NCBI GenBank assembly: GCA_001873115.1
Contig: MNYK01000110.1
Span: forward strand, 23,118-87,117
From: Desulfobacterales bacterium CG2_30_60_27
GTDB lineage: Bacteria > Desulfobacterota > Desulfobulbia > Desulfobulbales > CG2-30-60-27
DNA: 64,000 nt
Reading direction: 5' to 3'
A program made the position numbers and the translations under genes. This document shows positions 12,657 through 49,073 of the stretch, in pieces; the first letter of the stretch is position 1; each line of letters starts with the position of its first letter. The notes under the pieces were generated by a model. It did no database searches and was not told the origin of the DNA. It saw only the letters and a program-made list of their open reading frames with translations.

Positions 12657-12663
12657 TAAAAAA

Positions 12664-27236: not shown

Positions 27237-28817
27237 TTATGGCCTGGGGCCGGCCGCGGCCCGGGCATTGTTTTCCCTGCTCACCGGGATGTCCACCGTG
27301 ATTGTCGTATAGTTATCCAGCACCGAATCAACCCGCATGACGCCCTTGTGGTCCCGTACTATCCCGTGGCTGATCGACAGTCCCAGGCCAGTGCCCTCGC
27401 CAGGCGGCTTGGTGGAAAAGAATGGGTCAAAGAGCCGGTTCAGGATCCCCTGGGGGATGCCCTTGCCCCAGTCCGTGATCATGGTCCGGACACACTCGCC
27501 GCCATCCGCCACCACGGCATGACAACTGATCCTGAGCTTCTTGCCCGGGTTCTGCCCCGGATATCTTTCGTTGAGCGCATAGCGGCAGTTGCTGAGCAGG
27601 TTAAGAATCACCTGTTGCAGTTGCTGGGCATGGCCTCGCACCGGCGGCAGATCGTCTTCAAGGTCCAGCGCCAAGGCGATACCGTCTTTCTGAAACTGAT
27701 GTCCGACCAGGGCCAGGCTGTCGCCGATGACTTCCTTCATGCTGACCATGGCGTTGCCCTTGTCAGACTCCCGGGCAAAGGAGAGCAGTTTGTAGATGAT
27801 GGTGGAGATGCGCTCGCCCTCCTTGATAATGCGGGTCAGCAGGTCACGCTGCGGCGCATCCGGCACCATGTCGTCCAGCATGAGTTGGGCATAGTTGATG
27901 ATGCCGTTGATCGGGTTGTTGATTTCATGGGCCACGCCGGCGGCCAGTTCGCCGATGGCGGCCAGTTGCCCGGTGCGCATGGCCTCTACCTTGCGCACCT
28001 CTTCCTTGGTAAGATCACGGGCGACGAGCATGATCTGGCGCACCTCGCCGTTTAAATCGGGAACCGGCGAGACGGTGAGCAGATAGTCGCCGAAGAGGCC
28101 GGGCAACCGCGTTTCCATGATCTTGCGGGCCCGGGTCAGCAGCAGTTCCTCCAACGGGCATTTGATATGGGGCAGCCGGCCGCCGTGGATAATTTTGCAC
28201 ACACCATGGCCGATGATCTCCTCGCGGGTCTTGCGGGCCACGTGGATGGTCGCCGGGTTCACTTCGGTGATAATGCCCTCGGGGGTAACAATCAGGATGG
28301 GATCCTGGACCGCGTTGAACACCTCACCCCAGCCCGGCTGTGAAGGCCCGATATGCTGGTCCCTGAACTTGAACTCAGTGACCAGAAAGCCCAGGTGGCG
28401 CAGTCCGTCCCGCAGTTTGTCCCAGGTGATCGGCTTGGTGATGTAATCGCTGGCCCCGGCCTCGAAGGCCCGATCAATGGCCACCTCCTCATCCTCGGGT
28501 ACCATGAGGATGGTCAGAGTCCTTTCGGCGTCAGGCATCTTCATGATCTGACTGCAAAGATAATAGCCGCTGATATCGGGCAAGTCCACGTCGAGCAGCG
28601 CCACGTCGGGCTGGTTGCGGATAAAGGCGGCCATGGCCGACTCACCGTCCGCCACCTCCTCCACGGTGTAGCCGCTGATCTCCAGAAAACGGCGGATCAT
28701 GAGCCGTCGTTCCCGGTCGGCATAAGCCACCAGAAACCTGGACCATTTCCCCTTGCTTTTGAAGGGTTTTTCTTCCATGGCCAACCTGCTCTTGGGGTGT
28801 CGGGCGCACTGCGACAA
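27237..28817 (-). CDS. Cytoplasmic receiver-PAS histidine kinase
   Basis: N-terminal REC ([13 protein letters not shown]), PAS, H-box [34 protein letters not shown]. No TM segments. 17-nt gap to the EBP gene. Confidence 0.85.
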   Translation of the reverse strand: [526 protein letters not shown]

Positions 28818-28903: not shown

Positions 28904-29335
28904 TCAGACGATAATGGGGTCGCCTGTCTTGGCCTCGCCGCCCTGGATCACCCTGGCAAACCGCCCCTCGCGGGGCATGATGCAGTCGCCGGTGGCCTTC
29001 TTGATGGCGCAGCCCTGGTTGTGACATTCCTTGCCGATCTGGGTGATCTCCAGGATCACCTCGTCGCCGATCCGCAAGCGGTCGCCGATCTTGAGCGCCG
29101 TGAGATCGAGGCCACGGGTGATGATGTTTTCGGCAAAGGCCCCATTCTTTAAAGAAGGAAGGATCTTTTTGACGTTATCGATGGATTCGCCGGCCAGCAG
29201 CGAAATCTGACGGTGCCAGTCGCCGGCGTGGGCGTCATTCTCCATGCCCCACTGGGTTTTCAGGACAACCTTGATCTGTTCGCGCTTGACCATGCCCTTC
29301 TTTTCGCTGATACAGACTGCTTCCACATGCGCCAT
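28904..29335 (-). CDS. MOSC domain-containing protein
   Basis: 143 aa. MOSC-like beta-barrel signature (GAFAENIIT.GLDL...IGD.L.IG....EITQIGKECH). Last gene of the Moco cluster. Confidence 0.7.
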   Translation of the reverse strand: MAHVEAVCISEKKGMVKREQIKVVLKTQWGMENDAHAGDWHRQISLLAGESIDNVKKILPSLKNGAFAENIITRGLDLTALKIGDRLRIGDEVILEITQIGKECHNQGCAIKKATGDCIMPREGRFARVIQGGEAKTGDPIIV

Positions 29336-29353
29336 TGTCGTTATCTCCTTGCG

Positions 29354-29438
29354 GTTAGGTGGATAGACTGTAGGGGTTCAGTCTGTTAGCAATTGATATT
29401 ACCTAACAGACTACAGTCTAGACAACCTGAGTGGTTAC
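29354..29438. repeat. Family-B MITE, short/left-truncated copy
   Basis: AGGTGGATAGACTGTAGG...CTGTTAGC / CTAACAGACTACAGTCTAGACAACCTGAGTGGTTAC. The right terminus is intact and overlaps the moeA stop codon. Confidence 0.6.
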
Positions 29439-30646
29439 CTGAAATCAAAGGAATAAACCAAAACGCGCTCTCCTGGTTGGATCGCCTGCCCAGGCTCCAT
29501 GATGATATAGCCATCACTGTCCACCAGGGAAGTCAACATGTGCGAGCCCTGCCTTGCAGCGCTGGTGGCGGCATAGCCGCCGTCCGCATCGCAGGTCATC
29601 CGCACCCGGAGCATATTGGGCCGGCCGCCCTTGTTGACAATCTCCTCCCCCACTTGCGCGAAGACTATCGGCCAGCCGAAGGACAAGCCGCGGATGGCGC
29701 CGATCAGCGGCCGCACATAGTGGGTGAAACACATGAAGGCCGAGACCGGATTGCCGGGCAGCCCGAAAAGGAGGGTCTTGCCCTTTCTGGCCAGATAGAG
29801 AGGCTTGCCCGGTTTCTGGCGGATCCTCCAGAAGAGGGGGGTAAAGCCGTTCTCCTCGGCCGCCTCCTTGACATGATCATGCCGGCCTACCGAGACGCCG
29901 CCGGTGCAGAGGATGATATCTGCCGCCGCCTGGCCGATGGCCGCTACCGTGGCCTGCCGGTCGTCGGTGATCCTGGCACGGGAGACCAGTTGCGCTCCAG
30001 TCTCCAGTACCGCCGCCCGCAACATGGTCATGTTGGAATCCCGAATCTGATGGTCGGCAATGGCCGAGCCTGCGGCGATCAACTCCGAACCGGTGGCCAG
30101 CAGGGCGACATCACAGGGTTTGAAGACCTTGACCCGAGCAATGCCCACCGCCGCCAGCAGCGCCGCTTGGGGCGCCGCGATCCTGGCTCCCAAGCGTAGC
30201 AAAAGGTCGCCCGTGCCAAACTCCTCGCCACGCTGCCGAACATCTTGTCCCAACCGCTTGGCCACGTTGATGATCACGCTCTGCCCGGCCTCCCGGGTAT
30301 CTTCCACCCGGATTACTGTATCGACCCCATCGGGAAGCATCGCCCCGGTGCTGATCCGCACGGCACAGCCCGCACCCACGGTCCCGGAAAAAGGGACTCC
30401 CGCCCGGCTTTCGCCGATGATTGCAAGAGTCGCGGGCCTCTCCAGGCTCAGGTCGCGGACATCCCCCCAGCGCACGGCATAGCCGTCCATCGCCGAATTG
30501 GTATAGCGGGGCGAGGGTTCGGGAGCCTGGATGTCCTCGGCCAGGTAACGGCCCAGGGCCTGATCGAGCGGGCATTCCTCCACCACCGGGGCCGGAATAT
30601 TCGCCTTGATGATGGCGATTGCTTCACTGATGGAAATCATGGTCAT
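29435..30646 (-). CDS. moeA: Molybdopterin molybdenumtransferase MoeA
   Basis: About 400 aa with MoeA domain order. Motifs SAMDGYAV, TGGVSVGRHDHV, GLPGNPVSA. Confidence 0.9.
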   Translation of the reverse strand: MTMISISEAIAIIKANIPAPVVEECPLDQALGRYLAEDIQAPEPSPRYTNSAMDGYAVRWGDVRDLSLERPATLAIIGESRAGVPFSGTVGAGCAVRISTGAMLPDGVDTVIRVEDTREAGQSVIINVAKRLGQDVRQRGEEFGTGDLLLRLGARIAAPQAALLAAVGIARVKVFKPCDVALLATGSELIAAGSAIADHQIRDSNMTMLRAAVLETGAQLVSRARITDDRQATVAAIGQAAADIILCTGGVSVGRHDHVKEAAEENGFTPLFWRIRQKPGKPLYLARKGKTLLFGLPGNPVSAFMCFTHYVRPLIGAIRGLSFGWPIVFAQVGEEIVNKGGRPNMLRVRMTCDADGGYAATSAARQGSHMLTSLVDSDGYIIMEPGQAIQPGERVLVYSFDFR

Positions 30647-30720
30647 GCATCCTTATCAGCAAGGCTTCATGGAAGATCGGAAGGACCGGACCGATCCGTC
30701 CGATAAGACACTCCACCTCT

Positions 30721-31629
30721 TTAGTGTCCCTTGCCCTGCATCATCGGGAAGATGTGCAACAGTCCGGGGAAGAGAGCCTGCATGCTTTCGAGTGCGCCCT
30801 TGGAGCTGCCGGGCAGGTTGATGATCAAACACTCACCGCGCAGACCGGCCTCGCCTCGGGAGAGCATGGCGTATGGGGTTCGCTCCTTACCGTGCTGACG
30901 GATGGCAAGGGCGATGCCGGGCACGGTCCGGTCAAGGACGGCAATGGTCGCCTCCGGGGTGACATCGCGCGGCCCCAGGCCCGTGCCGCCGGTGGTGAAC
31001 ACCAGTTGGAACCCTTCCTCGTCGGCCAGCTTTTTGAGGCGAGCAATGATGGCCTCGCGATCATCCGGCAGGATCTCATAGCAATCAACCGCCACCGGTT
31101 GATTGGTCAAGAATGCCGCGATCACCTTCCCGGACTTGTCCTCGCGCTTGCCGGCATGGGTGGAATCGGACATCACCAGGATCGCGGTCTTGACCGGAGT
31201 GGGGAAGCGGTCGCTGAAATCGCTTTTACCGCCTTTCTTTTTCACCACCCTTATCTCACCGAAGGAGAGATTCTGGTCCAGCGGTTTCAGCATATCGTAG
31301 GCGTTGAGCAGGGCGCCGGTGACGGCGGTGATTGCCTCGACCTCCACCCCGGTTTTCCAGACCGAACGAACTTCGGCCGAGACCCGAATGCCCTGGTCGT
31401 GCTCCTCCAGCCGCACCTCGATCCAATCCAGGGGGATGGGGTGGCAGAAGACGATCAGATCGCTGCAATGCTTGGCGGCCAGGATGCCGGCGGCCCGGGC
31501 CACTTCGAGCACATCGCCCTTGGGTACCGTCCTGGCAAAGACCCGGCGCAGAACCTCGGGACTGCCATACAAAAAACCCTCGGCCAGGGCGGAGCGCAGG
31601 GTATGAAACTTGTGGCTGACATCGAACAT
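30721..31629 (-). CDS. moaC: Bifunctional cyclic pyranopterin monophosphate synthase MoaC / MoaB(Mog)-type molybdopterin adenylyltransferase domain
   Basis: N-terminal half is MoaC (KGDVLEVARAAGILAAKHCSDLIVFCHP). C-terminal half is MogA/MoaB (FTTGGTGLGPRDVTPEA). Confidence 0.85.
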   Translation of the reverse strand: MFDVSHKFHTLRSALAEGFLYGSPEVLRRVFARTVPKGDVLEVARAAGILAAKHCSDLIVFCHPIPLDWIEVRLEEHDQGIRVSAEVRSVWKTGVEVEAITAVTGALLNAYDMLKPLDQNLSFGEIRVVKKKGGKSDFSDRFPTPVKTAILVMSDSTHAGKREDKSGKVIAAFLTNQPVAVDCYEILPDDREAIIARLKKLADEEGFQLVFTTGGTGLGPRDVTPEATIAVLDRTVPGIALAIRQHGKERTPYAMLSRGEAGLRGECLIINLPGSSKGALESMQALFPGLLHIFPMMQGKGH

Positions 31630-31665
31630 GGAAAACTCCTAAAAAAAAAGGGGCAGGGGCAGGTT

Positions 31666-32697
31666 TCACCCCCCGATGCTGGCCATGGTGGGGGGGGTAG
31701 CCCTACGGCAGTTTGCCTCGGTCGCCAGGCCGTCCCGATAACGGTGGCTGACCACGGCCCTGACGGCGGCGGTGATCTCGTGGTCGGCGGCGTTGGACCG
31801 CAGCATGGCCTTCAGGTCTAGGACGCCGTTGTCGTAAAGACAGGTCTTCAGCATACCGGTTGGCGTGATCCGGATCTTGTTGCAGGTGGCGCAGAAGCGG
31901 CGGGAGTTGCCTTCAATCAGACCGATGGTGCCGGCAAAGCCAGGAATGGCATAAAGTCTGGCGGTGGCCGGCACGCCCGTCACCAGCGGAAGCATGGCCG
32001 GGAACAGGTGATGCAAACGGTCGCGCAGCGATCGGTTCGTTTGCGGCCGCACGTCGGGCGTGCCCGAGAAAGGCATTTTTTCAATAAAGCGCAAACACAG
32101 CGGGTGACGTTCTGGGAGTTCGGCCAGGGCCAGAATCTCGGCATCCGTAGTGTCTTCCAGGACCACGGCATTGATTTTGAGCGGCAGGCGGCGCACAATA
32201 CAGCCGTCCAGGGTGGCCAGCACCTCGGCCAGGTGGTCCCGCCGGGAGATCTGCTGGAAACGGTTGCGGTCCAAGGTGTCGAGGCTGAGGTTGATGCCGG
32301 CGATGCCCAGTGCGGCCAGCTCGTCGAGATAGCGGAGGGTCTTCACGCCGTTGGTGGTAATGTGCAGGGAACTTACCGTATCCATGCCCTGCAAGCGCCA
32401 CATGAACGGCAGGCAATCGCGCCGGGCAAAGGGCTCGCCGCCGGTGATGCGGATCTTGGAAAGCCCCAGGGCCGACAGCAGCCGCACCAGGCGTTCGAGT
32501 TCTTCAAAGGAAAGCATCTCCGCATGGGGTACGAAATCGACCCCGCATAAAGGCATGCAATACCGGCAGCGCAGGTTGCAACGGTCAGTGATGGCCAGTC
32601 GCAGATAGGTGATCTGTCGGCCATAATTGTCGGTCAGGCTGTCGATGCGATGGGCTCGGGAATGGGGGAGGGGATTCCCCCGCTGTGGCGCTGTCAT
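31666..32697 (-). CDS. moaA: GTP 3',8-cyclase MoaA (radical SAM)
   Basis: CNLRCRYC radical-SAM triad, C-terminal CATCNKIRITPTG auxiliary cluster motif, terminal GG. Confidence 0.9.
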   Translation of the reverse strand: MTAPQRGNPLPHSRAHRIDSLTDNYGRQITYLRLAITDRCNLRCRYCMPLCGVDFVPHAEMLSFEELERLVRLLSALGLSKIRITGGEPFARRDCLPFMWRLQGMDTVSSLHITTNGVKTLRYLDELAALGIAGINLSLDTLDRNRFQQISRRDHLAEVLATLDGCIVRRLPLKINAVVLEDTTDAEILALAELPERHPLCLRFIEKMPFSGTPDVRPQTNRSLRDRLHHLFPAMLPLVTGVPATARLYAIPGFAGTIGLIEGNSRRFCATCNKIRITPTGMLKTCLYDNGVLDLKAMLRSNAADHEITAAVRAVVSHRYRDGLATEANCRRATPPTMASIGG

Positions 32698-32700
32698 GCT

Positions 32701-32812
32701 GTCTCCTTTCCAAATGCTCGGGAGGCGGGGCCGTTTCCAATCCCGCCCTGTCGGCCGCAGACCCTGTCACGTAGCGCCGTGACGTAGGTCTTTAGGCTCG
32801 GAGTGTAGCAAT
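32701..32812 (-). promoter_or_regulatory. Molybdenum cofactor (Moco) riboswitch in the moaA leader
   Basis: Minus-strand RNA reads ACACUCCGAGCCUAAAGACCU...CAGGGCGGGAUUGGAAACGGCCCCGCCUCCCGAGCAUUUGGAAAGGAGAC-AGC-AUG. It contains the hallmark CUCCGAGCC, CCGCCUCCC and GGAAAGGAG (RBS-embedding) blocks of the Moco RNA motif. Confidence 0.75.
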
Positions 32813-32841
32813 TTTATGTAGTCGATAGGTTTTCTGCTTCG

Positions 32842-33040
32842 ATAACTGCTCAGGTTGTTTAGCCCGTTAGGCTGTAGACTGTTAGGCAAAAAGCGGAGCA
32901 TATACGGAACACAGTACGACTTATACCGCAAGGGCATAAGTTTCGTATGAGCAGACGAGCTGCTCAACTCAGCTTTATATCTCGTGTTTCGCTTTTGCTA
33001 ACAGTCTAAATGCCTACAGCCTATAGACCTGAGTAGTTAC
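32842..33040. mobile_element. Family-B MITE, 199-bp long form
   Basis: Termini ATAACTGCTCAGGT...ACCTGAGTAGTTAC. Perfect 8-bp duplication CTGCTTCG at 32834-32841 and 33041-33048. The interior holds a GCAA-capped hairpin. Confidence 0.85.
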
Positions 33041-33148
33041 CTGCTTCGTTAATCTATACCCGGTGGCAAGCAGTGTCAATCATGGCCGGTCGGTTTTCGA
33101 TCCGGTGCAGGCTGCTGTCCCATGGCCATCTTGCTCATGCGCTATGGA

Positions 33149-36100
33149 TCAGGCCTTGACCAGGTTGACCCTGGTCTCGTTGAACGAGGCGCTACCACCG
33201 ATCGGGTCGGTCATGCAGGAATTTTTGAGCACCGGGTCGATCTTCATGGCCGCGTTCGGGCAGAGACCGGCGGTGCGTCGTTTGTCACCCTTGACCGTCT
33301 TACCGTCGATGGTGGCGTCGGAGGCGCCGTAGCCCCAGTGGCCGAACGACCAGGAGACCGCGATCGTCTTCGGCCTCATCCCTTCCACCGCCTTGATCTT
33401 GCCGACCATGTCCACCCCTGGCCGGTTGGGCAAATGCCATTTGCCGTCCGGACTGGACTTGGAGACGAGCCGCGCCTTGTCACCGTCCTTGAAACCCATC
33501 GACCCGGCGGTGGCGGCATTGATCAGAATGAAATTCTCCGGCAGGATGGAGCTGAGCCAATAGTTGCCGGGGAGGGTGCGGGACTGGCCGCCCAGGATTT
33601 CCTTATAGGTAATAAGCTGCAAAGGCAGATCGCTATCCACCGCCGGATTACCAGCGGCATCCGTCGGCGTTTTGTAGGTGGCGCTACCGGAGAACCGTTT
33701 GCCGGTGAACGAATGCTTGGCCTTGGCCACGGTCTCGGCGTAAAGATTCAACTGTTTGCCGTATTTCTTTCCTAGCATGCCATCACCGCTTACCACCGCC
33801 GGGTCCCAATTTTTCCACCTGCCGCCCCGGTTGAGAACGGTAACGGTCTTTTTCCACTTGTCTGAGCCCACGGCCTTTTCCCAGCGGTCCGCGGAGAAGA
33901 TCGTGGGCTGCAGGTGCTGGCGGGCCTCGTTGAAGAGCTTCAGCTCGTTAAAGGAGGCATCGGGCACCGCGTCCCCGTCCTTGTCACCCACGGCCATGTT
34001 GGCGGCGAGCTTCAGATACCAGTCTTCCTGCCGGTTCAGATCCCAGCCGGTGCTGAAGCCGTCCTTGCCAAAGCCGGGTATATGCAACTGCTCGGCAATG
34101 GCCAGGGCCACCGTCTCGAAGGAACTGTGCATCTTTTCGCCGTACACGGTCACCACCTCGGTCAGCGGGGTGATGGTCGGTTGCCGGAATTTGGAGACCG
34201 GATAAGGTACGTCAGGAGAGGCGTGGGGAGTGGCAAAACGCTCCCAGATGGCGGCGTCGGGAAAGATATAGTCGGCATACATACTGGTCTCGCCGATGAC
34301 GATGTCCGTCGAGAAAAAGAGCGGGATCTTCGCGGTATCGGCCAGGATCGCCAGCGCCGTCTGTCCTGCCGGGGCCGCGAATCCCGGGCTGCCCATATGC
34401 AGCCAGACGGCCTTTGCCGTGTACGGATAGCCGTCGGCCGCCGAGGGCAGGGCCTCTTGATAGATATTGCTGGTGAACGGGAACCACGGGCGCTTGGCGG
34501 GATAACCGGTAAACAGGGTCGATTTTTCGTAGGTCGAGCCCTCGCGGGTGATCTTGTGGCCAAAGGGGGTCAGTTTGCCCGGCTGCATCTTGTTGACGTT
34601 GAACTGGGCCTCGGCCTTGTCGCCGAACTCGTGCCAGTGACCGCCGCCGACAGACATGCCGCCCTTGTGATCGGTATTACCGATGAGGATGTTCAGGGCG
34701 ATAAGCGCCTGGGCATTGTAGTAGCCGCTGGTATGCTTCACTGGGCCGCGGTAAAACTCGACCCCGGCCTTCTTGCCATGGGAGGTGAACTCCTTGGCTA
34801 CCAACTCGATGTCGGCGGTTGGTATGCCACAGATCTCCGACCACTGGTCGATGGTCTTAACCAAGGCCTCTTCCTTCAAGATGGTGAAGGCGGTCTTGAC
34901 CTTGACACCATTGATCTCGCCGCTAAAATCGAGGTCGCCAACCACGGCGTTCTTGTCGTCATCAGTCTTGACCGCCACCGGCTTGCCGCCTTGGACGACG
35001 ACGAAGCTGTCCTTGTCGCCTGCCCCGAGCTCTTCGGCCCGCGCCAGGGCACCGGGGCCGTCTTTTTCGATCTTCACCAAATGGGTGGCGTCAGACCAGG
35101 TGGTTTCGCCGGCTGCCTTGGCAGCGGCCAGGTTGGCGGCGGTCAGATATTTTTCGTCATAGCGTTTGTTGCCGATCATCCACTGGATCATGGCCAGGGC
35201 CAGGGCGGCATCGGTGGATGGTTTTACCGGCAACCATTTCCAGGCCCGGGAGGCGGACTTGCTCATCCGCGGGTCGACGACGATGACCTTGAGCCGGCCG
35301 GCAACCAGCCCATCGGTCACCTTGGGACACATGGCCGGCGGCCCGAAGTTGGCCTCGATGAAACCGGTCCCGAAATAGATGATGCACTCGGCGTTGAAGG
35401 AATCCGGCTTCATATGGGTGATGCCGGCCGACCACTTGCCTTCCTTGTACTGGTTGGTGGCCTCCTTGTAGGCGATATGGTGGGATTGCTCGCAAATGCT
35501 GGTGTGTTCGATAATATTGTTGGAGCCGAACCCACCGTGCATGAAGCGCTTGCCGAACTCGATCCGGCCATGCTCGATCCGGCCCCACATGCCGACGAAC
35601 TGGTTGTTTTTCGGGCCCAGGTCCGGGTGCTCCGGATCGATCAGTTTGTCGAGGTGGGCGCTATATTTACCCTTGAAGTCCGCCACCTTCATCTTGCCGG
35701 CGGCAACCTCCTTGACATCGGCTTCCATGGCGGCGGAGAGTTTGGCGTCGTTCATGGCGTACAGTTCTTTCAAGCCGGGCACCCGACGGTTTTCCCCTAT
35801 ACCCTTGAACAGCTCGCCGCCGTTCACGATCTCCGAGATCGCCTTGTCGAAGGCGACGATCTCCCACCGGTTGGAGCCGCGGGGGCCTTTGCGTTTAAGA
35901 ACCTTCACCACCCGATAGGGGTCGTAAAGACTCTGGATGCCGGCCTGGCCCTTGGGGCAGAGCCCGGCGTCGATCTTCGCCGCCTTGGCCGGGGCCGTAT
36001 CGTAGTTGAGATTGGGGATCAGGTTTTCGCTGAACGGATTGCCATCGATCTTGACCGCGACGCCGTTTAGAATCTTGACCTTGATCGGGCAGGCGGTATG

Positions 36101-36340
36101 GCATTGCAAACAGGCCGAGTAGATGACGCTGGTCGCCTTGGCCAGGGGATAATCGCCGGCCCCGGCCACGCCCGATTCCATGGCGTGGAGAAGATTATAA
36201 GCGCCGTCGATCTGGTTCATCAGCACCGCGCAACCGCCAAGCAGGGCGGATGATTTAAGGACGGTCCGGCGCGAGATCTTCATCTGGGAACATGCAGCCA
36301 CGCAGTCGTCTGCCTGGCATGTTTTTTTGGTATCAGTCAT
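33149..36340 (-). CDS. Tat-exported molybdopterin oxidoreductase catalytic subunit, ~1060 aa (TtrA-size; substrate unknown)
   Basis: ORF 33149..36610, trimmed to MTDTKK (ATG 36340, AGGAGGAGG RBS, 17 nt after the B-subunit stop). Twin-arginine SRRTVLK. N-terminal FS0 motif CLQCHTAC...C. MopB domains throughout. Confidence 0.85.
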   Translation of the reverse strand: MTDTKKTCQADDCVAACSQMKISRRTVLKSSALLGGCAVLMNQIDGAYNLLHAMESGVAGAGDYPLAKATSVIYSACLQCHTACPIKVKILNGVAVKIDGNPFSENLIPNLNYDTAPAKAAKIDAGLCPKGQAGIQSLYDPYRVVKVLKRKGPRGSNRWEIVAFDKAISEIVNGGELFKGIGENRRVPGLKELYAMNDAKLSAAMEADVKEVAAGKMKVADFKGKYSAHLDKLIDPEHPDLGPKNNQFVGMWGRIEHGRIEFGKRFMHGGFGSNNIIEHTSICEQSHHIAYKEATNQYKEGKWSAGITHMKPDSFNAECIIYFGTGFIEANFGPPAMCPKVTDGLVAGRLKVIVVDPRMSKSASRAWKWLPVKPSTDAALALAMIQWMIGNKRYDEKYLTAANLAAAKAAGETTWSDATHLVKIEKDGPGALARAEELGAGDKDSFVVVQGGKPVAVKTDDDKNAVVGDLDFSGEINGVKVKTAFTILKEEALVKTIDQWSEICGIPTADIELVAKEFTSHGKKAGVEFYRGPVKHTSGYYNAQALIALNILIGNTDHKGGMSVGGGHWHEFGDKAEAQFNVNKMQPGKLTPFGHKITREGSTYEKSTLFTGYPAKRPWFPFTSNIYQEALPSAADGYPYTAKAVWLHMGSPGFAAPAGQTALAILADTAKIPLFFSTDIVIGETSMYADYIFPDAAIWERFATPHASPDVPYPVSKFRQPTITPLTEVVTVYGEKMHSSFETVALAIAEQLHIPGFGKDGFSTGWDLNRQEDWYLKLAANMAVGDKDGDAVPDASFNELKLFNEARQHLQPTIFSADRWEKAVGSDKWKKTVTVLNRGGRWKNWDPAVVSGDGMLGKKYGKQLNLYAETVAKAKHSFTGKRFSGSATYKTPTDAAGNPAVDSDLPLQLITYKEILGGQSRTLPGNYWLSSILPENFILINAATAGSMGFKDGDKARLVSKSSPDGKWHLPNRPGVDMVGKIKAVEGMRPKTIAVSWSFGHWGYGASDATIDGKTVKGDKRRTAGLCPNAAMKIDPVLKNSCMTDPIGGSASFNETRVNLVKA

Positions 36341-36357
36341 TGCCTGCCTCCTCCTTG

Positions 36358-37140
36358 TTATTGATGGCATTCTGTGCAGGTGATCGGCGTGCCGACCGCG
36401 ATATTCTTCCGATCCTCGAAGCCGATGTAATGGATACGGGGGTTGGTGCCAAGCTCGCTCTTGACCTGCCAGGTTTTCTCGTTCTTCAACAGTTCGGAGA
36501 CGAGGCTTGTCGGGTCGTTTTGGTCGCCGAAGTACATGGCCCGACCGATACAGGTGGAGACGCAAGCGGGGAGCATACCGCTCTCCAGACGATGACCACA
36601 GAAAGTGCATTTACGGATTGTGCCGGTCAGGCCGCCGCTGCCGCGGCTCAAGGTTCGGCCGTTTTCAAAGAAATTCCGCAATTCATAGGGTTCCATGACC
36701 GGGGTGTTATCAGTATAAAACCCCCCCTTGTCCTCGACGATGGCATAGTAAGGGCATGCCTTCTTGGCCGCGTCGCCCGCCTTTTTGTTCTTGGCCAGTT
36801 TGGCGTAGTCGAATTCAACGATGCCGTCCCCGCGTTTGATGATGGCGTCCTTGGTCACCGCGTTGGCGGCCTTCTGGCAGGGCGGCTTGTCGCAATGCTG
36901 GCAGTTGGCCGGCATGAAGAACCGGTTCAGGTCAGGGAAACTGTTGTGTTCGGTCTCGAACACCTTGCGGTACGAGGTGCCAGGCGGACAGACATTCTCC
37001 GCCATGCAGGAAACCGCGCAGGCGTGATCCCCCACGCATTTGCGGGTATCGATGACCATTATCCAGGATCTCTGCTCCAGGGGCTTGGCCAGGGCCCGTT
37101 CCAGGTCCTCGTGCATCCTGACAATCTCGTTTATTGCCAT
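36358..37140 (-). CDS. Fe-S electron-transfer subunit (DmsB/PsrB/TtrB family) with only three predicted clusters
   Basis: ORF 36358..37197, trimmed to MAINEIV (ATG 37140, AAAGGAGGAAGG RBS). Cys groups: CVGDHACAVSC, CQHCDKPPCQKAA, ...ACPYYA, CTFCGH..ACVSTC. Confidence 0.85.
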   Translation of the reverse strand: MAINEIVRMHEDLERALAKPLEQRSWIMVIDTRKCVGDHACAVSCMAENVCPPGTSYRKVFETEHNSFPDLNRFFMPANCQHCDKPPCQKAANAVTKDAIIKRGDGIVEFDYAKLAKNKKAGDAAKKACPYYAIVEDKGGFYTDNTPVMEPYELRNFFENGRTLSRGSGGLTGTIRKCTFCGHRLESGMLPACVSTCIGRAMYFGDQNDPTSLVSELLKNEKTWQVKSELGTNPRIHYIGFEDRKNIAVGTPITCTECHQ

Positions 37141-37324
37141 ACCTTCCTCCTTTGACCTTGATGGCCTGTTGCTCGAATCCAACATCTTGACCTTCACGGA
37201 ATTTCCTGTTTCGATCAGGTTTACCAGCCTGGCAATCTCCGGAAAGCATAGCAGGTCACCCCGGAGAAAAAGTTAGACTCTGCTGCCAGAGGCGCAGGCA
37301 TGAAACCATAACCTTACATATTTT

Positions 37325-37499
37325 GTAACTATCCAGCTTGTGTCGGCAGTCAAGCGTTCCCGGCCTGAAAATACTTTTCGCTCATTCTCGGCGGGCGTCC
37401 GCGCCCTCCCGCGCATCCTGCGCCCGGTCGCGGACGAACCCGCGAAAAGCATTTCCAGTCCGGGAACTCACCTGGGTTGCGGTTCTGCTGGATAGTTAC
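37325..37499. mobile_element. Family-A MITE, 175-bp long form
   Basis: Both TIRs are present. Flanking 8-mers are CATATTTT and CATCTTTT (7/8). It sits between the RR gene and the oxidoreductase operon. Confidence 0.85.
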
Positions 37500-37614
37500 C
37501 ATCTTTTTAATCTTAGGCATTAGACTTGAAGAATTGAAAGAAAAAAATCAGGAAAGATGTGACTTCTTGTCAGTGAAAACTGGAGGGGGCAGAGAAGATT
37601 TGCAGGGTAATTCC

Positions 37615-38310
37615 CTACCGCACGGCTCCGACCGGCCTTGCTTTTGAGAAAAGGCCAAGGCGCAGGGTCAATTCCACCAACTCCGCCTTGGTGTCCAGCC
37701 CAAGCTTGATCATGGCCCGCGAGCGATAGGTAGCAACGGTCTTTTCACTCAGGTATTCCTGTAGGGCAATCTCCTTGCTGGTGTGTCCCTGGGCCACCGC
37801 CAGCATCACCTGGCGCTCGCGCGGGCTCAGGGCGGCCCACAACACGCTGTCTTTATCCTCTATCACCGAGGCCGTCGTTGTCGCCGTCTGCCCTGCGAGG
37901 TACTGCTGCACCATGAACGGCTGAATGAAAATCTCACCCCGCATGACTGAACGGATGGCATAGAGAAGATCCACATCCAGCCCCTTTTTGAGGACAAAGC
38001 CGGCAGCGCCCCGTGCCATGGCCAACTGCAGGTATTGCTGGTCTTCGTGCATGGTGAGCATCATGATCCGCGAAGCCGGCGACCGCTCTTGCAAGGCCGG
38101 CAGGAGATCCAGGCCACTGGTGTCACCAAGGGCGATATCCAAAAGAATCACGTCGGGTCGCAATTGCCCGGCCAGGGCGACGGCCTCTCCAGCGCGGGAT
38201 GTGCGGCCCACTACCCGCATGTCTGCTTCCGCATCGAGCAGCATGCACAACCCGGCAAGCAGGAGGGCATGGTCGTCCACCACCATGACCGAAACTTTCT
38301 TTGTGCTCAT
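37615..38310 (-). CDS. NarL/LuxR-family response regulator
   Basis: REC (VMVVDDH...DVILLDIALGD) plus a C-terminal LuxR HTH (LSPRERQVMLAVAQGHTSKEIALQEYLSEKTVATYRSR). 4-nt overlap with the HK gene. Confidence 0.9.
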   Translation of the reverse strand: MSTKKVSVMVVDDHALLLAGLCMLLDAEADMRVVGRTSRAGEAVALAGQLRPDVILLDIALGDTSGLDLLPALQERSPASRIMMLTMHEDQQYLQLAMARGAAGFVLKKGLDVDLLYAIRSVMRGEIFIQPFMVQQYLAGQTATTTASVIEDKDSVLWAALSPRERQVMLAVAQGHTSKEIALQEYLSEKTVATYRSRAMIKLGLDTKAELVELTLRLGLFSKARPVGAVR

Positions 38311-39800
38311 TGGGCTTTTTTCCTCACGGCCGGGACTTCAAAAATCACCATGGTGCCTTCGCCAGGAGCGGACTGCATGCTGAAACTGCCGCCGAGCAAC
38401 AGGGAGCGCTCTTCCATGCCGTAAAGCCCCAAGCCAGCGGCATGCGAACAACAGGCGTCAAAGCCGATCCCGTCGTCTTCCACCACCCCGCGCAAGCGGT
38501 CACCACGCCACTCCAGGATGACCTTGACCTCGAGAGCCATGGCGTGCTTGACCGCATTGGTCAAGGCCTCTTGAATAATTCTGTAGACGCAGGTTTCCAC
38601 CGCCACATCGGGCCGCTGCCCCTCGAACCCCAAGTTTACCATAGTGGCATTAATTTTAAATTTATTTCTAAAATCACCAAGATACCGGTCGAGAGCCGCC
38701 AACAGGCCCATGTCGTCCAGCACACTGGGCCGCAATTCCACGGCAAGATCATGCAGCGCATCCATTTCGTCGGTGATAGCCGAACGTAACCGGGTTATCC
38801 CGGTCAGAAATTGCTCCCGATCTTCGGCCCGCTCCAAGACTTTCAACTCCAACATAAACGAGGCAAGAGCCTGGCCGCTCTGGTCATGCAATTCCCTGGC
38901 AATGCGTTTCCTCTCTCCCTCCTGGGTTGCAATAATCCGCTGCAAAAATTCCTTGCGGATGCTTTCCTTTTCATCTCTTTCGGCCTGAGCCTTCTTGAGC
39001 TGCCTGGCCATGCTGTTGAAGGCATCTATCAGTTGGCCCACTTCATCCTTGGCCGCATCCACCACCTGGATGTTGAAGTCACCCCGCCTGATGGATTGTG
39101 TGGCGGCAACCAGTTTCTTGATCGGCCGCATGATGAGCCAGGTCAGGATGCCGCTGCAGATAATGGCCAGACCAAACACGGCCATGGTGTTGGCCAGCAA
39201 GGATTGTAAAAACTCACCATTTTCCCGACGTGAAGGGGCTTCGGCCAATCCCACCCTGAGGCCGCCAGCAATGCCGGGGCCAAACGGGGCAAAGGCGTCC
39301 CATACCGCGCCTTCATTGGTAAGGAGTTTGCGCGGCGAACTCCCCCAAGGATTATCTTTGCCAGTCAACCGCAAGAGATCTCCAGGAAAGCCTCCCGTAA
39401 AGCTATGGCAGAGGACATGGCCGGCATCGTCCACGATAAAGGCATACCGCAGAGCCGGGCGGTTGTGCACGGCGTTTTTCAACAGATTGGTCAAGCCGTA
39501 AAGGTCATCGATCAACACACTTTCACGGGCGTGGGCCGAAAGTTCAACCGCGAGCAACTGGCTTTGATTTTGTAACTGAATGGCCATGGTGGCCGTAAGG
39601 TTATTGTGGACCCGGACTATGGTGAAGCCGGCAAAAATCATGATCAGGCCCACGGCCATGCCCATGATTTTCAACCGGAGCGGGACGCCCAAAAAAAACT
39701 GCGGCAGACTTTGCGCAGGAGCGCGAAGCAGGCGGCCGAGCCGCCGCAAGCCATCAACGCTCCATACCAGCATCCTTGGTGACCAGGCAGTAACTTTCAT
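38307..39800 (-). CDS. Sensor histidine kinase (2 TM + periplasmic domain, HAMP, HisKA_3, HATPase_c; NarX/TtrS-like)
   Basis: HAMP PIKKLVAATQSIRRGDF, H-box RIARELHDQSGQAL (HisKA_3 type), GLGLYGMEER. Confidence 0.85.
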   Translation of the reverse strand: MKVTAWSPRMLVWSVDGLRRLGRLLRAPAQSLPQFFLGVPLRLKIMGMAVGLIMIFAGFTIVRVHNNLTATMAIQLQNQSQLLAVELSAHARESVLIDDLYGLTNLLKNAVHNRPALRYAFIVDDAGHVLCHSFTGGFPGDLLRLTGKDNPWGSSPRKLLTNEGAVWDAFAPFGPGIAGGLRVGLAEAPSRRENGEFLQSLLANTMAVFGLAIICSGILTWLIMRPIKKLVAATQSIRRGDFNIQVVDAAKDEVGQLIDAFNSMARQLKKAQAERDEKESIRKEFLQRIIATQEGERKRIARELHDQSGQALASFMLELKVLERAEDREQFLTGITRLRSAITDEMDALHDLAVELRPSVLDDMGLLAALDRYLGDFRNKFKINATMVNLGFEGQRPDVAVETCVYRIIQEALTNAVKHAMALEVKVILEWRGDRLRGVVEDDGIGFDACCSHAAGLGLYGMEERSLLLGGSFSMQSAPGEGTMVIFEVPAVRKKAQ

Positions 39801-40699
39801 TAAGGCGCGTAGAGATTGGCTGGCGGCACCACAAAGCGGTCAATGGCCAACTTTTCAAGGGCCGCCTTGCCGGACGGAGATTCGTGGACGGCCAGAAAGA
39901 ACGCCAGCAGCTTTTCCTTTAGTTCAGGGCTGATCTGTCGAGGCACGACCACCGGCGGCATGCCAAACTCCCCGGATTCCCATATAACTCTGGTTTTTTT
40001 TCTTATCTCGCTGTCTCTCTGCCTGGCGTTTTCATAGATCAGATTATCCACCGAGGCACAATTGACCACGCCTTCCATGACTGCAGCAATGGAACGCTCG
40101 TGACTGTGGGTAAAAATGGAACTGCTGAAAAAGGTTTCCGGTTGTTCCCCTCTTCTGCTGAGTTCGCTGACCGGGCACAGGTATCCTGTGTTGGACATGG
40201 GGTCGGTGAAGGCAAAGGACTTCCCCCGCAAATCTTCCAGGCTGTTATAGTCCGATCCAGCCGGGACAATGAGGAGCGCCTTGTAGGTTGTCTTACCGTT
40301 AATTTCCGGGACCACCAGAAGCGACATAATGCCTTGCCGCTGCCCTTCCAGATAAGCCCCGGTGCAGATAAAGGCAAGGTCCACCACGCCCCGGGCGAGG
40401 AGGTCGTTGATTTCCTGATAGGTGCGGCGCTGCACAAGCTGGATGGTTCTACCCATCCGGTCGCCGAGGAGGTCGAGCAATGGCCGGTAGGATTGCACAT
40501 TGCCCTGCGGTGAAAGAATGGCGGCCACGGCCACCTTGAGCAGATTTTTTTCCGGAACCGTTTCCCTGGCGGGCAATGGGGCCAGCTTGTCCAATCTGAC
40601 CAGCGGCTCAGCCTCGGGCGACACTTTCTCCGACCGATGACAGCCGCCAGTCGACAATAACAGGAAAAGGATGGGCGCCAGGGTCAGTATGGCACGCAT
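39800..40699 (-). CDS. Periplasmic PhnD-family (phosphonate/oxyanion-type) substrate-binding lipoprotein, probable sensor partner
   Basis: ORF 39800..40798. Likely start is MRAILTLAPILFLLLSTGGC (lipobox, ATG 40699). PhnD-like core with TYQEINDLLARGVVDLAF and FAFTDPMSNTGY. Its stop overlaps the HK start. Confidence 0.8.
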   Translation of the reverse strand: MRAILTLAPILFLLLSTGGCHRSEKVSPEAEPLVRLDKLAPLPARETVPEKNLLKVAVAAILSPQGNVQSYRPLLDLLGDRMGRTIQLVQRRTYQEINDLLARGVVDLAFICTGAYLEGQRQGIMSLLVVPEINGKTTYKALLIVPAGSDYNSLEDLRGKSFAFTDPMSNTGYLCPVSELSRRGEQPETFFSSSIFTHSHERSIAAVMEGVVNCASVDNLIYENARQRDSEIRKKTRVIWESGEFGMPPVVVPRQISPELKEKLLAFFLAVHESPSGKAALEKLAIDRFVVPPANLYAP

Positions 40700-40778
40700 C
40701 GATCTCTTGGAAAAGCATGAAGTCCAAGGTGAATGCTTAAACCTCTTATTATTCATTGCAATCATACTCGAGCCTCTG

Positions 40779-40916
40779 ATGTTCCATGGACTCATCATAC
40801 GGATGTACTATGCGCCAGACCAGCACCCGCCGCCGCATTTTCATGTGTACTACCATGTATCCTGCAGTGCGCGGGTTGGGGTGAGCTTGCGAACCCCAAC
40901 ATTAAGGCATCGATAA
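40779..40916 (+). pseudogene. Truncated DUF4160-family gene remnant
   Basis: MFHGLIIRMYYAPDQHPPPHFHVYY matches the N-terminal signature of DUF4160 proteins. Only about 45 codons are present, and the reading frame ends in a GTTGGGGT...ACCCCAAC hairpin. Confidence 0.45.
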
Positions 40917-41041
40917 AAAACGAATGCCGCTATTTTACCCCAGTCACCGCCTTTTGTAAGCACAGTGTTGGGGTTCTGGACGCTTGCTTCCTGATCTCGA
41001 TTCCGTTCCCCCAATAAACAGCGGCCAGTCACCGAAAAGAC

Positions 41042-42274
41042 TCAATAAAGGAATCCGAAAAGCCAGAGCGGCATCCGGTTGCCATGACCGATCTCGATGT
41101 TGTCCAGCGCCAGCCAGGCGTTCTCAACCTTGCTGATCTGGCTCCGGCCCTTGTTTTTGCCCCCCACCTCGAAGGTGACGTCATTCACCAGGAAATCTCC
41201 CCTGGCCGGCACCGAGACGTTGTGACCGACACGGAGCATATTCAGGAAAAAGGTCTCACGCATCGCGCCGCTGTCAGGCGCCTTGCCACCGGCCAGCGCA
41301 TGATATAGGTTCGGATTGTTCAGGTAGATCTTTTCCGGCTTTTCCATCGCGCGCAGACCTTTGCCGCTCCGCGCAACGGTCAGTATTACCCCGGCGTCCT
41401 CCAGGTATTTAAGGTAGGTCTTCAGGGTCCTTTCGTCGCCTATGCCCAGCAGGTTCTTGAGCTGTTTCATGTCCGGGGTGAACGGGACCAAGGAGGAAAT
41501 GATCGAGAGGAGCTTATGAATCTTCCTGATACTTGAACCGTTCAGTGACTGATGGATGGCGGGCAGATCGCCTTCCAGGGTGGTATGGACATTCTGCTCC
41601 AGGGTCATGCGGAACTGGGTCTTGTCATGGTATTCCCGGAAATACGGGTAATAGCCGCACTCCAGATACTCCTTGAAAAGGGCCAGCACCTTGAGCCTTT
41701 TTTCCTCCAGCTTCCGCACAATGGCGTCGCTAGCCTGCTGGTGACCTGAAACAATAGCGTCGAGCGTCAGGTTGTCGAAATAGATGCCGCAATTCATGCC
41801 GATATATTCACGGAACGACATGCCGTGCATCCGGTGGACCAGGGCACGCCTGCTCAGGTCATGGCTCCCCCTGGTGATTTCCAGGGCCGAACTTCCCGAG
41901 GCCAGGATCTTCAGGTTGGGGAAGGTGTCATGGATGCTCTTCAGCTCCATTGACCAGTCTGGATATTTGTGGATTTCATCAAAGCAGATAAACTCGCCGC
42001 CAAGCTTGTGGAATTCGTCGGCGATCTCATAAAGAGAGGAACGGGCCACCTGAAAATGATCGACCTGAAGGTAGAGCGCCTTGCGGGTGTATAGATCGTC
42101 ACCATGGCTTGCCAAGAGATGCTGAATCATGGCGGTGGTTTTGCCGATGCCCCGCTGGCCCACGATGATGGAAAAACGGTTGGTCAGTGGGTGGTCCCGG
42201 AGGAAGTAGCGCTTGAATTCACGGTTGCGGATGCGGAGGAAGGTCTGGCTGAGGGAAAATATGGCGTCGAGCAT
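41042..42274 (-). CDS. AAA-family ATPase with DUF4143-type C-terminal domain (COG1373-like)
   Basis: Walker A GQRGIGKTT, Walker B ICFDEIHKY, about 410 aa. Confidence 0.75.
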   Translation of the reverse strand: MLDAIFSLSQTFLRIRNREFKRYFLRDHPLTNRFSIIVGQRGIGKTTAMIQHLLASHGDDLYTRKALYLQVDHFQVARSSLYEIADEFHKLGGEFICFDEIHKYPDWSMELKSIHDTFPNLKILASGSSALEITRGSHDLSRRALVHRMHGMSFREYIGMNCGIYFDNLTLDAIVSGHQQASDAIVRKLEEKRLKVLALFKEYLECGYYPYFREYHDKTQFRMTLEQNVHTTLEGDLPAIHQSLNGSSIRKIHKLLSIISSLVPFTPDMKQLKNLLGIGDERTLKTYLKYLEDAGVILTVARSGKGLRAMEKPEKIYLNNPNLYHALAGGKAPDSGAMRETFFLNMLRVGHNVSVPARGDFLVNDVTFEVGGKNKGRSQISKVENAWLALDNIEIGHGNRMPLWLFGFLY

Positions 42275-46839: not shown

Positions 46840-46903
46840 GCCAAGATATATACCAAAACCACCTGTCTCTGCATTGAAAAAATGGATTAATCAAAACATT
46901 TCG

Positions 46904-47077
46904 GTAACTATCCAGCTTGTGTCGGCAGTCAAGCGTTCCCTGCCTGGCAATGCCTTTCGCTCATGCTCGGCGGGCGGCCGAGATTTTCCGCGCATCCGCG
47001 CCAGGTCGCGGACAAACCCCCGAAAAGCATTGCCAGTCCGGGAACTCACTTGGGTTGCGGTTCCGCTGGATAGTTAC
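46904..47077. mobile_element. Family-A MITE, 174-bp long form
   Basis: Both TIRs are present. Flanks AACATTTC(G) and AGCATTTC match 7/8 with a 1-nt offset. Confidence 0.8.
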
Positions 47078-47232
47078 AGCATTTCCCGTTTACCCGGCCT
47101 CTGTTTTTCCGAGACGACAAGACGGTTTTCCTGAGCTTTTGGTTGTGGTATAACCCACGGAAAAGTAATCGTCTTTATCGTCTGCCCCGATTTTTCGATA
47201 GTGCGCGGCTTTGAGGTTGTAATTGATCGCCA

Positions 47233-48222: not shown

Positions 48223-48768
48223 ATGAATATTCCCAATATCATTTCCATGCTGCGCATCCTGCTTGTTCCTTTGCTGGTGATCTTTCTCCTGCAGGGCAAA
48301 ATCCATTTTGCCCTGCTCGTCTTTTTGCTGGCCGGGCTAAGCGATGCGGTTGACGGTTTCCTGGCCAGACTGCTGCATCAGCAAACCTCGATCGGCGCCT
48401 TCATCGATCCACTGGCCGACAAACTGCTCATCAACACCGCCTTCGTTACCCTGGGCATCCTGGGTATCATGCCCGGCTGGCTGGCCGTGCTGGTGGTGAG
48501 CCGTGACATTATCATCCTGGCCGGCATTCTGGTGCTCATGCTGACCGGCGATCGGACCATGGAAATCCGGCCAACCCTGGACAGCAAGATCAACACGGTG
48601 ACCCAGCTTGGTTGTGTGTGCTTCTTTCTGGCCTTTGATCTGCTGGGGCCAATACAGGCCTGGGAGCAAGCGATTCTCCTGGTAACCGCTTTTTTCACCA
48701 TGGTGTCCGGATTCCGCTACATTGTCATTGGCTTTCGCATTCTCGGTAAAACGAAAGATGGCGAGTAA
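48223..48768 (+). CDS. pgsA: CDP-alcohol phosphatidyltransferase (PgsA-like)
   Basis: DAVDGFLARLL...GAFIDPLADK motif, 181 aa, 4-5 TM segments. The stop codon lies inside the MITE terminus. Confidence 0.75.
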   Translation: MNIPNIISMLRILLVPLLVIFLLQGKIHFALLVFLLAGLSDAVDGFLARLLHQQTSIGAFIDPLADKLLINTAFVTLGILGIMPGWLAVLVVSRDIIILAGILVLMLTGDRTMEIRPTLDSKINTVTQLGCVCFFLAFDLLGPIQAWEQAILLVTAFFTMVSGFRYIVIGFRILGKTKDGE

Positions 48769-48938
48769 TTATCCAGCGGCACCGCAACCCGGGTGAGTTC
48801 CCGGACTGGCAATGCCTTTCGCGAGTTCGTCCGCGACCTGGCGCGGATGCGCGGGAAGTCGCGGACGCCCGCCGAGCATGAGCGAAAGGCATTTTCAGGC
48901 CGGGAACGCTTGACTGCCGACACAAGCTGGATAGTTAC
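48765..48938. mobile_element. Family-A MITE, 174-bp long form, inverted orientation (left TIR variant GTAATTATCCAGC)
   Basis: Full-length homolog of the copies at 37325 and 46904. No recognisable TSD. It abuts a family-B copy. Confidence 0.8.
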
Positions 48939-48957
48939 ATATTATTTTGTTATTACA

Positions 48958-49073
48958 GTAACAGCTCAGGTTGTTTAGCCAGTTAGGCTGTAGACTGTTA
49001 GGCAAAGAAACGGAGCGTATTTCGCTGTTGCTAACAGTCTAAATGCCTACAGCCTATAGACCTGAGTAGTTAC
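48958..49073. mobile_element. Family-B MITE, 116-bp form
   Basis: Termini GTAACAGCTCAGGT...ACCTGAGTAGTTAC. Perfect 8-bp duplication TTATTACA at 48950-48957 and 49074-49081. Confidence 0.85.

Follow-up and report, generated by a model that had tools for sequence, protein, structure and literature searches.

An ArrX-like three-protein sensor precedes an anchorless Ttr-like molybdoenzyme in an aquifer Desulfobacterales genome

In the arsenate respirer Melioribacter roseus, arsRPCB is followed by the "ArrTSR" genes, which encode a protein of the phosphonate-binding type with its kinase and regulator, and right downstream of them comes a ttr-type locus (MROS_1074-1076) in which arsenate induces ttrA (Gavrilov et al. 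2017, PMC5492636). Anaeromyxobacter sp. PSR-1 and Geobacter sp. OR-1 have TtrA homologs for which Ito et al. 2024 (PMC11462812) describe 6- to 14-fold induction by As(V) together with As(V) reductase activity, and Ttr-like arsenate cases have also been reported from Pyrobaculum and Limisphaera. Here, we analyze a stretch of 64,000 nucleotides (hereafter the window) from Desulfobacterales bacterium CG2_30_60_27 (assembly GCA_001873115.1, contig MNYK01000110.1, positions 23,118 to 87,117), in which genes for a periplasmic binding lipoprotein (X), a sensor kinase (S), and a response regulator (R) precede those for the Fe-S subunit (B) and the catalytic subunit (A) of a molybdoenzyme (Table 1). 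Such a sensor-linked Ttr-like locus is of a kind already described, with its layout published in 2017. We think it probable that an ArrXSR-type (ArrTSR-type) arsenic-oxyanion sensor here controls a Ttr-like respiratory arsenate reductase.

Two bodies of work define the families concerned. AioX, ArxX, and ArrX form a sensing subfamily with a ligand pocket made of Tyr88, Cys106, Tyr131, Ser161, Ser163, His192, and Asp210 (AioX numbering); ArrX binds arsenate with a dissociation constant of 1 uM and phosphate with one of 150 uM and leaves tetrathionate, thiosulfate, and selenate unbound; and ArrR combines a FixJ-like helix-turn-helix with the lack of an AAA+ domain, in contrast to AioR and ArxR, which are of the sigma54 type (PMC5908839). 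On the enzyme side, a 2026 study of the Shewanella ANA-3 Ttr gives as marks of true Ttr the ttrBCA order with a nine-helix TtrC, twin-arginine translocation (Tat) leaders on both A and B, and the lack of Gly-Arg at the position of ArrA R165; this Gly-Arg is strictly conserved in Arr, Arx, and "Ttr-like arsenate reductases" and absent from true TtrA (PMC12949373).

The sensor module and the catalytic subunit

All genes of the locus lie on the minus strand in the order X, S, R, a miniature inverted-repeat transposable element (MITE), B, A. The open reading frame (ORF) of X extends upstream of its start; taking Met34, at 40699, gives MRAILTLAPILFLLLSTGGC, a lipoprotein-type signal with the lipobox LSTGGC. 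X and S overlap by 1 nt (the first base of S is the last base of the X stop codon), S and R overlap by 4 nt, R and B are separated by 474 bp, and A and B are spaced by 18 nt. Transmembrane windows place two segments in S, at about residues 44-64 and 201-225, enclosing a periplasmic stretch of ∼135 amino acids (aa). A is 1063 aa long, or 1044 aa if it starts at MKISRR; the deposited A (OIP45678.1, 1044 aa) falls in the same 90%-identity cluster as the A of the window, and the deposited valine-tRNA ligase (OIP45666.1) and a response regulator (OIP45647.1) of this genome are identical to proteins encoded in the window. The original prediction had given this gene order and a TtrA-like size for the catalytic subunit, both of which the ORF and Pfam calls and the length of 1063 aa bore out. 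It had also noted that the operon holds no NrfD-type subunit, and tblastn with two NrfD queries detected no NrfD homolog anywhere in the 64-kb window. The MITE that it placed between R and B proved real, with inverted-repeat termini and three full and three deleted copies in the window.

X was most similar to ArrX of Chrysiogenes arsenatis (PDB 6x6b; E 1.1e-55, 40% identity over 245-248 aa) and next to AioX (E 7e-35, 33% identity), with the transport proteins PtxB (5.5e-19) and PhnD (3.5e-10) both weaker than these. Its predicted pocket (Y127, C145, Y172, S202, T204, H233, and D251) is identical to that of AioX at six of seven positions, the exception being Thr in place of Ser163. No permease or ATPase gene adjoins X, and overlapping X-S-R genes without ATP-binding cassette (ABC) transporter partners fit the criterion for the ArrX/AioX sensing subfamily. 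R, built of REC and GerE domains without AAA+, is of the ArrR kind, and every X protein adjoining this enzyme family is closer to ArrX than to AioX. An NCBIfam search returned no TtrS-type model for X and a weak match to a model of a putative selenate-binding protein (53 bits, cut-off 250), whereas R reached 49.7 bits against the TtrR model, the cut-off of which is 290. Judged by these matches, the three-protein sensor is the known ArrX/ArrT-S-R arsenic-oxyanion module and not a "split TtrS."

The Chrysiogenes arsenatis ArrXSR-ArrAB system is a close counterpart of the sensor half, with X 40% identical, the pocket kept, the same X-S-R logic, and a FixJ/LuxR-type R that has no AAA+ domain. The enzyme differs: that of the window reaches 112 bits with the ArrA model, for which the cut-off is 1600, and is a Ttr-like protein of ∼1060 aa instead of an ArrA. 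The best NCBIfam model for A was TtrA (NF011567), at 448.6 bits with a cut-off of 1750, and the scores with PhsA (167 bits) and ArrA (111.9 bits) were likewise below cut-off, so that A falls outside canonical ArrAB by the ArrA equivalog score. B scored 122 bits against the TtrB model (cut-off 416). A carries the Tat motif SRRTVLK and the FS0 motif CLQCHTAC, and its Cys283, in the region EHTSICEQSHHIA, aligns with the Mo ligand of ArrA. In an alignment to ArrA (6cz7) that did not include true TtrA sequences, G253-R254 of A (MWGRIEHG) falls on G164-R165 (lrGRysh), and HTSIC(283) falls on H189-S190-x-x-C193. The motifs GRIEHGR and EHTxICEQSHHIA are common to all 15 family members that we collected.

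Similarity to the TtrA clade outside true Ttr and Arr, the Gly-Arg pair, and the Cys ligand together give A the features of the Ttr-like group, and on this sequence evidence A is unlikely to be a true tetrathionate reductase. The PSR-1 and OR-1 enzymes (Muramatsu 2020 and Tsuchiya 2019, summarized in PMC11462812 and PMC12949373) likewise have a TtrA-clade subunit outside true Ttr with the Gly-Arg shared by Arr and Arx, and their hosts are Fe- and S-reducing bacteria of sediments and soils. The enzymes of PSR-1 (WP_059435911.1), OR-1 (WP_041969781.1), M. roseus (MROS_1076), and Pyrobaculum (PAE1265) were not named among the 120 best matches of two homolog searches. Salmonella TtrSR/TtrBCA, the frame in which the original prediction had set both the regulators and the enzyme, resembles the locus in the size of A, in having B before A, and in its LuxR-type regulator; each of its tested defining features fails in the window. 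For the regulators, X is nearer to ArrX than to PhnD and matches no TtrS, and R lies below the TtrR cut-off; for the enzyme, A reaches 448.6 of 1750 bits, B has no Tat leader, and Gly-Arg is present. Other parts of that prediction fared better: a separate binding protein of the AioX/AioS kind agrees with the matches of X, first to ArrX and then to AioX, and arsenate was rightly listed among the candidate ligands.

The Fe-S subunit and its electron supply

We placed the start of B at position 37140, where an AGGAGG ribosome-binding site precedes the ATG; this start yields a 260-aa protein in agreement with the length of its homologs. The protein begins MAINEIVRMHEDLER and has neither a twin-arginine signal nor any signal peptide. 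B was aligned across 15 loci, 10 without NrfD and five with the order B-NrfD-A. In all 10 loci without NrfD, B bears a C-terminal extension of ∼13-22 residues ending in C-x-x-C-H, and the full group III CxxCxxC is gone; in all five B-NrfD-A loci, B has no tail and group III is kept. The fourth Cys of group II is also gone in the B of the window and in most close relatives, and with both losses, all four ligands of one [4Fe-4S] cluster are missing. B thus departs from the pattern of four Cys groups (16 Cys) seen in proteins of the PsrB/TtrB/ArrB/FdnH type, and alignment to PsrB and ArrB confirmed the motif assignment. In FdnH/PsrB-type proteins, the cluster held by the ligands lost here is the one nearest the membrane subunit, as in the Fdn-N structure; ArrB of Shewanella ANA-3 has four clusters and is not known to carry a CxxCH tail.

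The tail motif is strongly conserved. C255, C258, and H259 match the remaining Fe-S ligands in invariance across 56 diverse homologs. The tail occurs in 115 of 120 close homologs, and two full CxxCxxCxxxC motifs occur in none of them (0/120). In a set of 150 representatives at 50% identity, the tail is confined to the five nearest and is found in none of the 110 that have at least two full motifs. An AlphaFold2 model of B (mean predicted local distance difference test score 88.6) is confident for the body, with residues 246-260 below 50 and predicted to be disordered. At another site, residue 38, the B of the window and of most of the closest relatives has Asp (CVGDHAC) in place of the second Cys of group I, and more distant anchorless relatives keep Cys there. 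The sequence suggests an Asp-ligated or 3Fe cluster beside the catalytic subunit.

On the simplest reading, the B tail would be a covalent heme-c site standing in for both the distal cluster and the NrfD module. We put forward only tentatively the fuller proposal that CxxCH is a covalent heme-c site on a flexible tail and that, together with the loss of the distal cluster, it replaces NrfD to form a hybrid Fe-S/heme electron port, through which cytochromes of the periplasm or of the NapC/NirT type would pass electrons straight to the molybdoenzyme; such a port would be previously undescribed. A metal- or metalloid-binding tail or a docking peptide are other possible readings of the motif. Thioredoxin/DsbD genes near L012, L015, and L016 (loci are numbered as in our collection) were considered as support for heme attachment and rejected, as they occur with both types of B. 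Small secreted proteins encoded after A in L010 and L011 (75 and 90 aa) were likewise rejected as a third subunit, being of low complexity, mutually unrelated, and absent from the window. The anchorless subtype occurs in Desulfobacterota, Nitrospirota, Acidobacteriota, Armatimonadota, Methylomirabilota, and Methanosarcinales. A neighbor-joining tree of A does not gather the anchorless loci into one clean clade; the change to this form may have occurred more than once, or the tree may lack resolution. We found no description of an anchorless B-A enzyme with a three-cluster, CxxCH-tailed B, and this may be a new variant.

Shewanella sp. ANA-3 offers a parallel for the supply of electrons. Its ArrAB is a soluble, anchorless, two-subunit arsenate reductase with a quinol-oxidizing donor of the NapC/NirT family: in Shewanella, CymA feeds the anchorless ArrAB. 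The window also encodes a protein of this family, as Shewanella does in CymA, although the catalytic subunits belong to different clades. This membrane-anchored pentaheme cytochrome is a candidate donor to B-A, with weak linkage to it; in the Geothrix locus L004, a homolog of 39% identity is encoded at a distance of 2.8 kb from A. Choosing the longest ORF misses the cytochrome gene of the window, because it is overlapped by a spurious ORF on the plus strand.

Relatives, repeats, and regulatory signals

Scanning a genome collection with a single protein query gave only nine loci. Across the loci collected, four phyla share the arrangement of X-S-R and then B-(C)-A, which takes two forms. Loci L005-L007, from Ardenticatenia, Eubacteriales, and Trueperaceae, have X-S-R(NarL)-B-NrfD-A and share with the window 45-49% identity in X, 32-40% in S, and 41-46% in R. 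Loci L002, L010, L011, L017, and L019 have X-S-R(sigma54)-B-(C)-A, and promoters of the form TGGCA-N-TTGC stand upstream of B in these sigma54 loci. The closest relatives of A (87% and 77% identity) are accompanied by an X with tandem domains, a kinase of the sCache kind, and a regulator of the sigma54 type. The link between sensor and enzyme is thus conserved, whereas the regulator module has undergone exchange. Tandem Phosphonate-bd X proteins (558-576 aa) are encoded in L017 (1986-3692), L019 (4409-6085), and L002 (4355-6085); their domain 1 is ArrX-like (37-39% identity), and domain 2 is divergent (25-27%).

Several relatives lie among arsenic genes. In L011 (Deferrisoma camini), ArsC, ACR3, ArsD, and ArsA are followed by X-S-R(sigma54)-B-A; in L015, whose A is 73% identical, ArsP, ArsR, ArsC, and an ACR3-ArsC fusion stand immediately before B-A; and in L006, an ACR3 gene lies 1.4 kb past A. 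An IncFII plasmid of Citrobacter arsenatis (NZ_CP037863.1; L020, 10019-15414) carries a B-C-A-D-like set inside an arsRDABC/arsH island, and this set, at 34% identity, has both the GR and the EHTNICELSHHIA motifs. At equal distance, plasmid homologs from Halobellus and Azospirillum have no ars neighbors, and both GR and EHTxICEQSHHIA are missing. M. roseus, compared by its published description, likewise has genes for a phosphonate-binding protein with its kinase and regulator immediately before those of a Ttr-clade molybdoenzyme, with ars genes adjacent as in L011 and L015. It differs in having three enzyme genes, including a membrane subunit; in the window, B-A stands alone, ars genes are lacking, R and B are separated by a MITE, and B has a CxxCH tail.

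Other observations on the relatives concern annotation and neighbors. The L020-type set has 72 matching plasmid records, mostly enterobacterial (Escherichia, Citrobacter, Klebsiella, and Salmonella), and in L020, it is annotated merely as DsrO, hypothetical protein, and oxidoreductase. Joint Genome Institute (JGI) annotation labels B homologs "tetrathionate reductase subunit B." In the Geothrix metagenome-assembled genome of L004, a gene for an OprP-type phosphate-selective porin O/P directly follows A (13300-14490), which is consistent with uptake of a phosphate-like oxyanion.

The MITE between R and B belongs to a family (family 1) whose terminus pattern has 15 matches in the window vs. 0.04 expected. 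All of its copies are intergenic, and the short ones keep both ends without the GC-rich center. In the window, this family sits at the junction of the regulator and enzyme modules. The termini of a second, palindromic family are related to those of family 1, and B-A is bracketed by the two families, the family 2 copy lying between the stop codon of A and the molybdenum cofactor (Moco) riboswitch. MoaA, MoeA, or MobA/B genes also flank B-A in L012, L014, and L011.

A scan of 32600-41100 for sigma70 promoters and terminators gave sites no more frequent than in shuffled sequence. L005-L007 have loose TCRGG-N5-6-CCYGA palindromes between R and B; a search for NarL/ArrR operators in the window yielded only a weak AGGGAATTACCCT at the stop codon of R, too weak to claim. 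A second two-component pair, with a sigma54-type regulator, is encoded beyond the moa genes and resembles the pair directly preceding B-A in L014 (Table 1), and TGGTTTCATGCCTGCG, which weakly resembles a sigma54 site, is found 167 nt upstream of B. Dual control of B-A by this pair is, on these similarities, possible.

Table 1. Features of the window; positions count from its first nucleotide
Feature	Position	Strand	Basis or remark
X, ArrX-like periplasmic oxyanion-binding lipoprotein	39800-40699 (ORF to 40798)	-	Pfam Phosphonate-bd, 4.9e-62
S, membrane sensor kinase, HAMP + HisKA_3 + HATPase_c	38307-39800	-	Pfam
R, NarL/FixJ-type response regulator, Response_reg + GerE helix-turn-helix, no AAA+ domain	37615-38310	-	Pfam
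MITE family 1, 177 bp, terminal inverted repeat GTAACTATCCAGC	37324-37500	.	Between R and B
MITE family 1, further full copies	46903-47078; 48765-48939		89-92% identity
MITE family 1, internally deleted copies	1541-1641; 12722-12803; 18076-18140
MITE family 1, fragment	52761-52830
B, Fe-S subunit, 260 aa	36358-37140 (ORF to 37197)	-	Alignments, Cys positions
C255-x-x-C258-H259 of B, heme-c-type motif	36364-36378	-	Homolog alignment
A, Tat-exported Mo-bis(pyranopterin guanine dinucleotide) catalytic subunit, Ttr-like	33149-36340	-	NCBIfam scores, ArrA alignment, family motifs
MITE family 2, palindromic, terminal inverted repeat GGTAACTACTCAGGT	32845-33041	.	Directly downstream of A
MITE family 2, other copies	48950-49074; 29385-29439
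Moco riboswitch before moaA	32685-32815	-	Rfam RF01055, 58.1 bits, gathering score 36, E 2.5e-11
moaA, moaC-mog fusion, moeA, MOSC-domain gene	28904-32697	-	Pfam
REC-PAS-HisKA kinase	27237-28817	-	39% identical to kinase directly preceding B-A in L014
REC-PAS-sigma54 regulator	25429-27219	-	46% identical to regulator directly preceding B-A in L014
NapC/NirT-family membrane-anchored pentaheme cytochrome, five CxxCH	18334-19842	-	Homolog of 39% identity in L004
Cobalamin riboswitch	12473-12667	-	80.5 bits

Arsenate and the alternative substrates

In the mechanism that we favor, X would bind a periplasmic oxyanion, most likely arsenate in view of its homology to ArrX and its conserved pocket. Liganded X would dock on the periplasmic domain of S, and S, to go by the domain architecture, would phosphorylate R at Asp58. 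As an activator of the FixJ/NarL type, R would then turn on B-A, as the conserved synteny suggests. Tat would export A with B carried along, because B has no signal peptide. At a Mo ligated by Cys283 and with Gly253-Arg254 in the substrate pocket, motifs that A does possess, it would reduce As(V) to As(III). Electrons would bypass NrfD: since B has lost the membrane-facing cluster and has CxxCH instead, they would probably enter B from periplasmic or membrane c-type cytochromes in a CymA-like manner. The moa/moe operon downstream, annotated as controlled by the Moco riboswitch, would supply the cofactor.

Several points weigh against this account. An active-site comparison, proposed along with the original prediction and carried out here by alignment to ArrA, gave a divided answer: Gly-Arg and Cys283 are kept, but only three of seven arsenate-contact residues of ArrA (R165, H189, and C193) are identical in A. 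S190 is replaced by Thr, K198 by His, and Y166 by Ile, and Y210 is unaligned; these seven are what we take to be the contact residues described by Glasser 2018. The tblastn search of the 64-kb window with a set of Ars proteins revealed no recognizable ars gene, and the MITE separates R from B, with no R operator found. Arsenate as the substrate of B-A is something we infer from sequence, and the placement of A among Ttr-like arsenate reductases comes from motifs and context rather than from a tree. Ligand specificity is not fixed by pocket residues alone (Badilla et al., PMC5908839), and the authors of the M. roseus study preferred a Psr-type enzyme as the main respiratory reductase (PMC5492636).

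Other substrates have to be judged against the same evidence. ACR3 and Ars proteins also export Sb(III), so that the ars neighbors of the relatives would fit equally well a respiratory antimonate reductase like AnrA/AnrB, in which the same architecture senses and reduces Sb(V) and ars-type efflux removes Sb(III). Desulfuribacillus and Geobacter sp. SVR are the reported sources of AnrA, an Sb(V) reductase of the dimethyl sulfoxide reductase family, and its gene cluster may be anrXSRBA-like. We nevertheless regard antimonate as unlikely: no protein of Geobacter SVR or Desulfuribacillus was among the named top matches of two homolog searches, one of them seeded with a Desulfuromusa protein, and ArrX-like pockets suit tetrahedral oxyanions, whereas Sb(OH)6- is, by general chemistry, octahedral. 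A reductase for some other oxyanion (selenate as in SrdBCA, tellurate, vanadate, etc.), with an ArrX-like sensor that has drifted in specificity, strikes us as similarly improbable. In its favor, catalysis is versatile within the TtrA/SrdA/alternative-Arr clade (PMC10100899), some relatives have ChrA and MOT1-type oxyanion transporters in their vicinity, and the weak match of X to the selenate-binding model (53 vs. 250 bits) points the same way. However, the GR and EHTxICExSHHIA signature tracks with ars islands, the Limisphaera strain with a Ttr-like complex grows on arsenate and not on selenate, and ArrX does not bind selenate (PMC5908839).

The direction of catalysis may also be questioned. 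The closest relatives of A (87% and 77%) use a sigma54-type X-S-R like the Aio and Arx systems, and Cys145 of X, the arsenite-binding residue of AioX, is conserved, as would suit an enzyme that oxidizes arsenite anaerobically, in the Arx direction, and has arsenite as the ligand of X. We give this little credence, since the same Cys occurs in ArrX, the X proteins of the family are all nearer to ArrX than to AioX, the characterized Ttr-like enzymes are reductases, and the Desulfobacterales lineage of the host is anaerobic. That the enzyme is a true tetrathionate reductase and its sensor a split version of TtrS is very improbable. TtrA and TtrB are indeed the best NCBIfam matches, and the JGI name for B homologs agrees with them, but the scores are far under the equivalog cut-offs (A 448/1750, B 122/416, R 50/290), TtrC and a Tat leader on B are both lacking, and A has the GR motif. 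Moreover, ArrX does not bind tetrathionate (PMC5908839), and a Ttr-like arsenate reductase is reported not to reduce it (PMC12949373).

Arsenate respiration under the control of an ArrXSR-type sensor remains the reading that we prefer, and it bears on how such genes are named. Ttr-like arsenate reductases are currently annotated as tetrathionate reductases or as generic oxidoreductases; an ArrX-like sensor, the GR and EHTxICEQSHHIA motifs, and a B without a Tat leader could serve as markers for their reannotation. In flooded paddy soils, transcripts of Ttr-like arsenate reductases far exceed those of arrA (PMC11462812), and these enzymes may drive the release of arsenic to groundwater and rice. 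The locus described here, from a Desulfobacterales genome of the Crystal Geyser aquifer, would be a sensor-linked addition to this group. If the tail of its B carries heme, a complex iron-sulfur molybdoenzyme would here be wired to the respiratory chain in a new manner that needs no membrane subunit.

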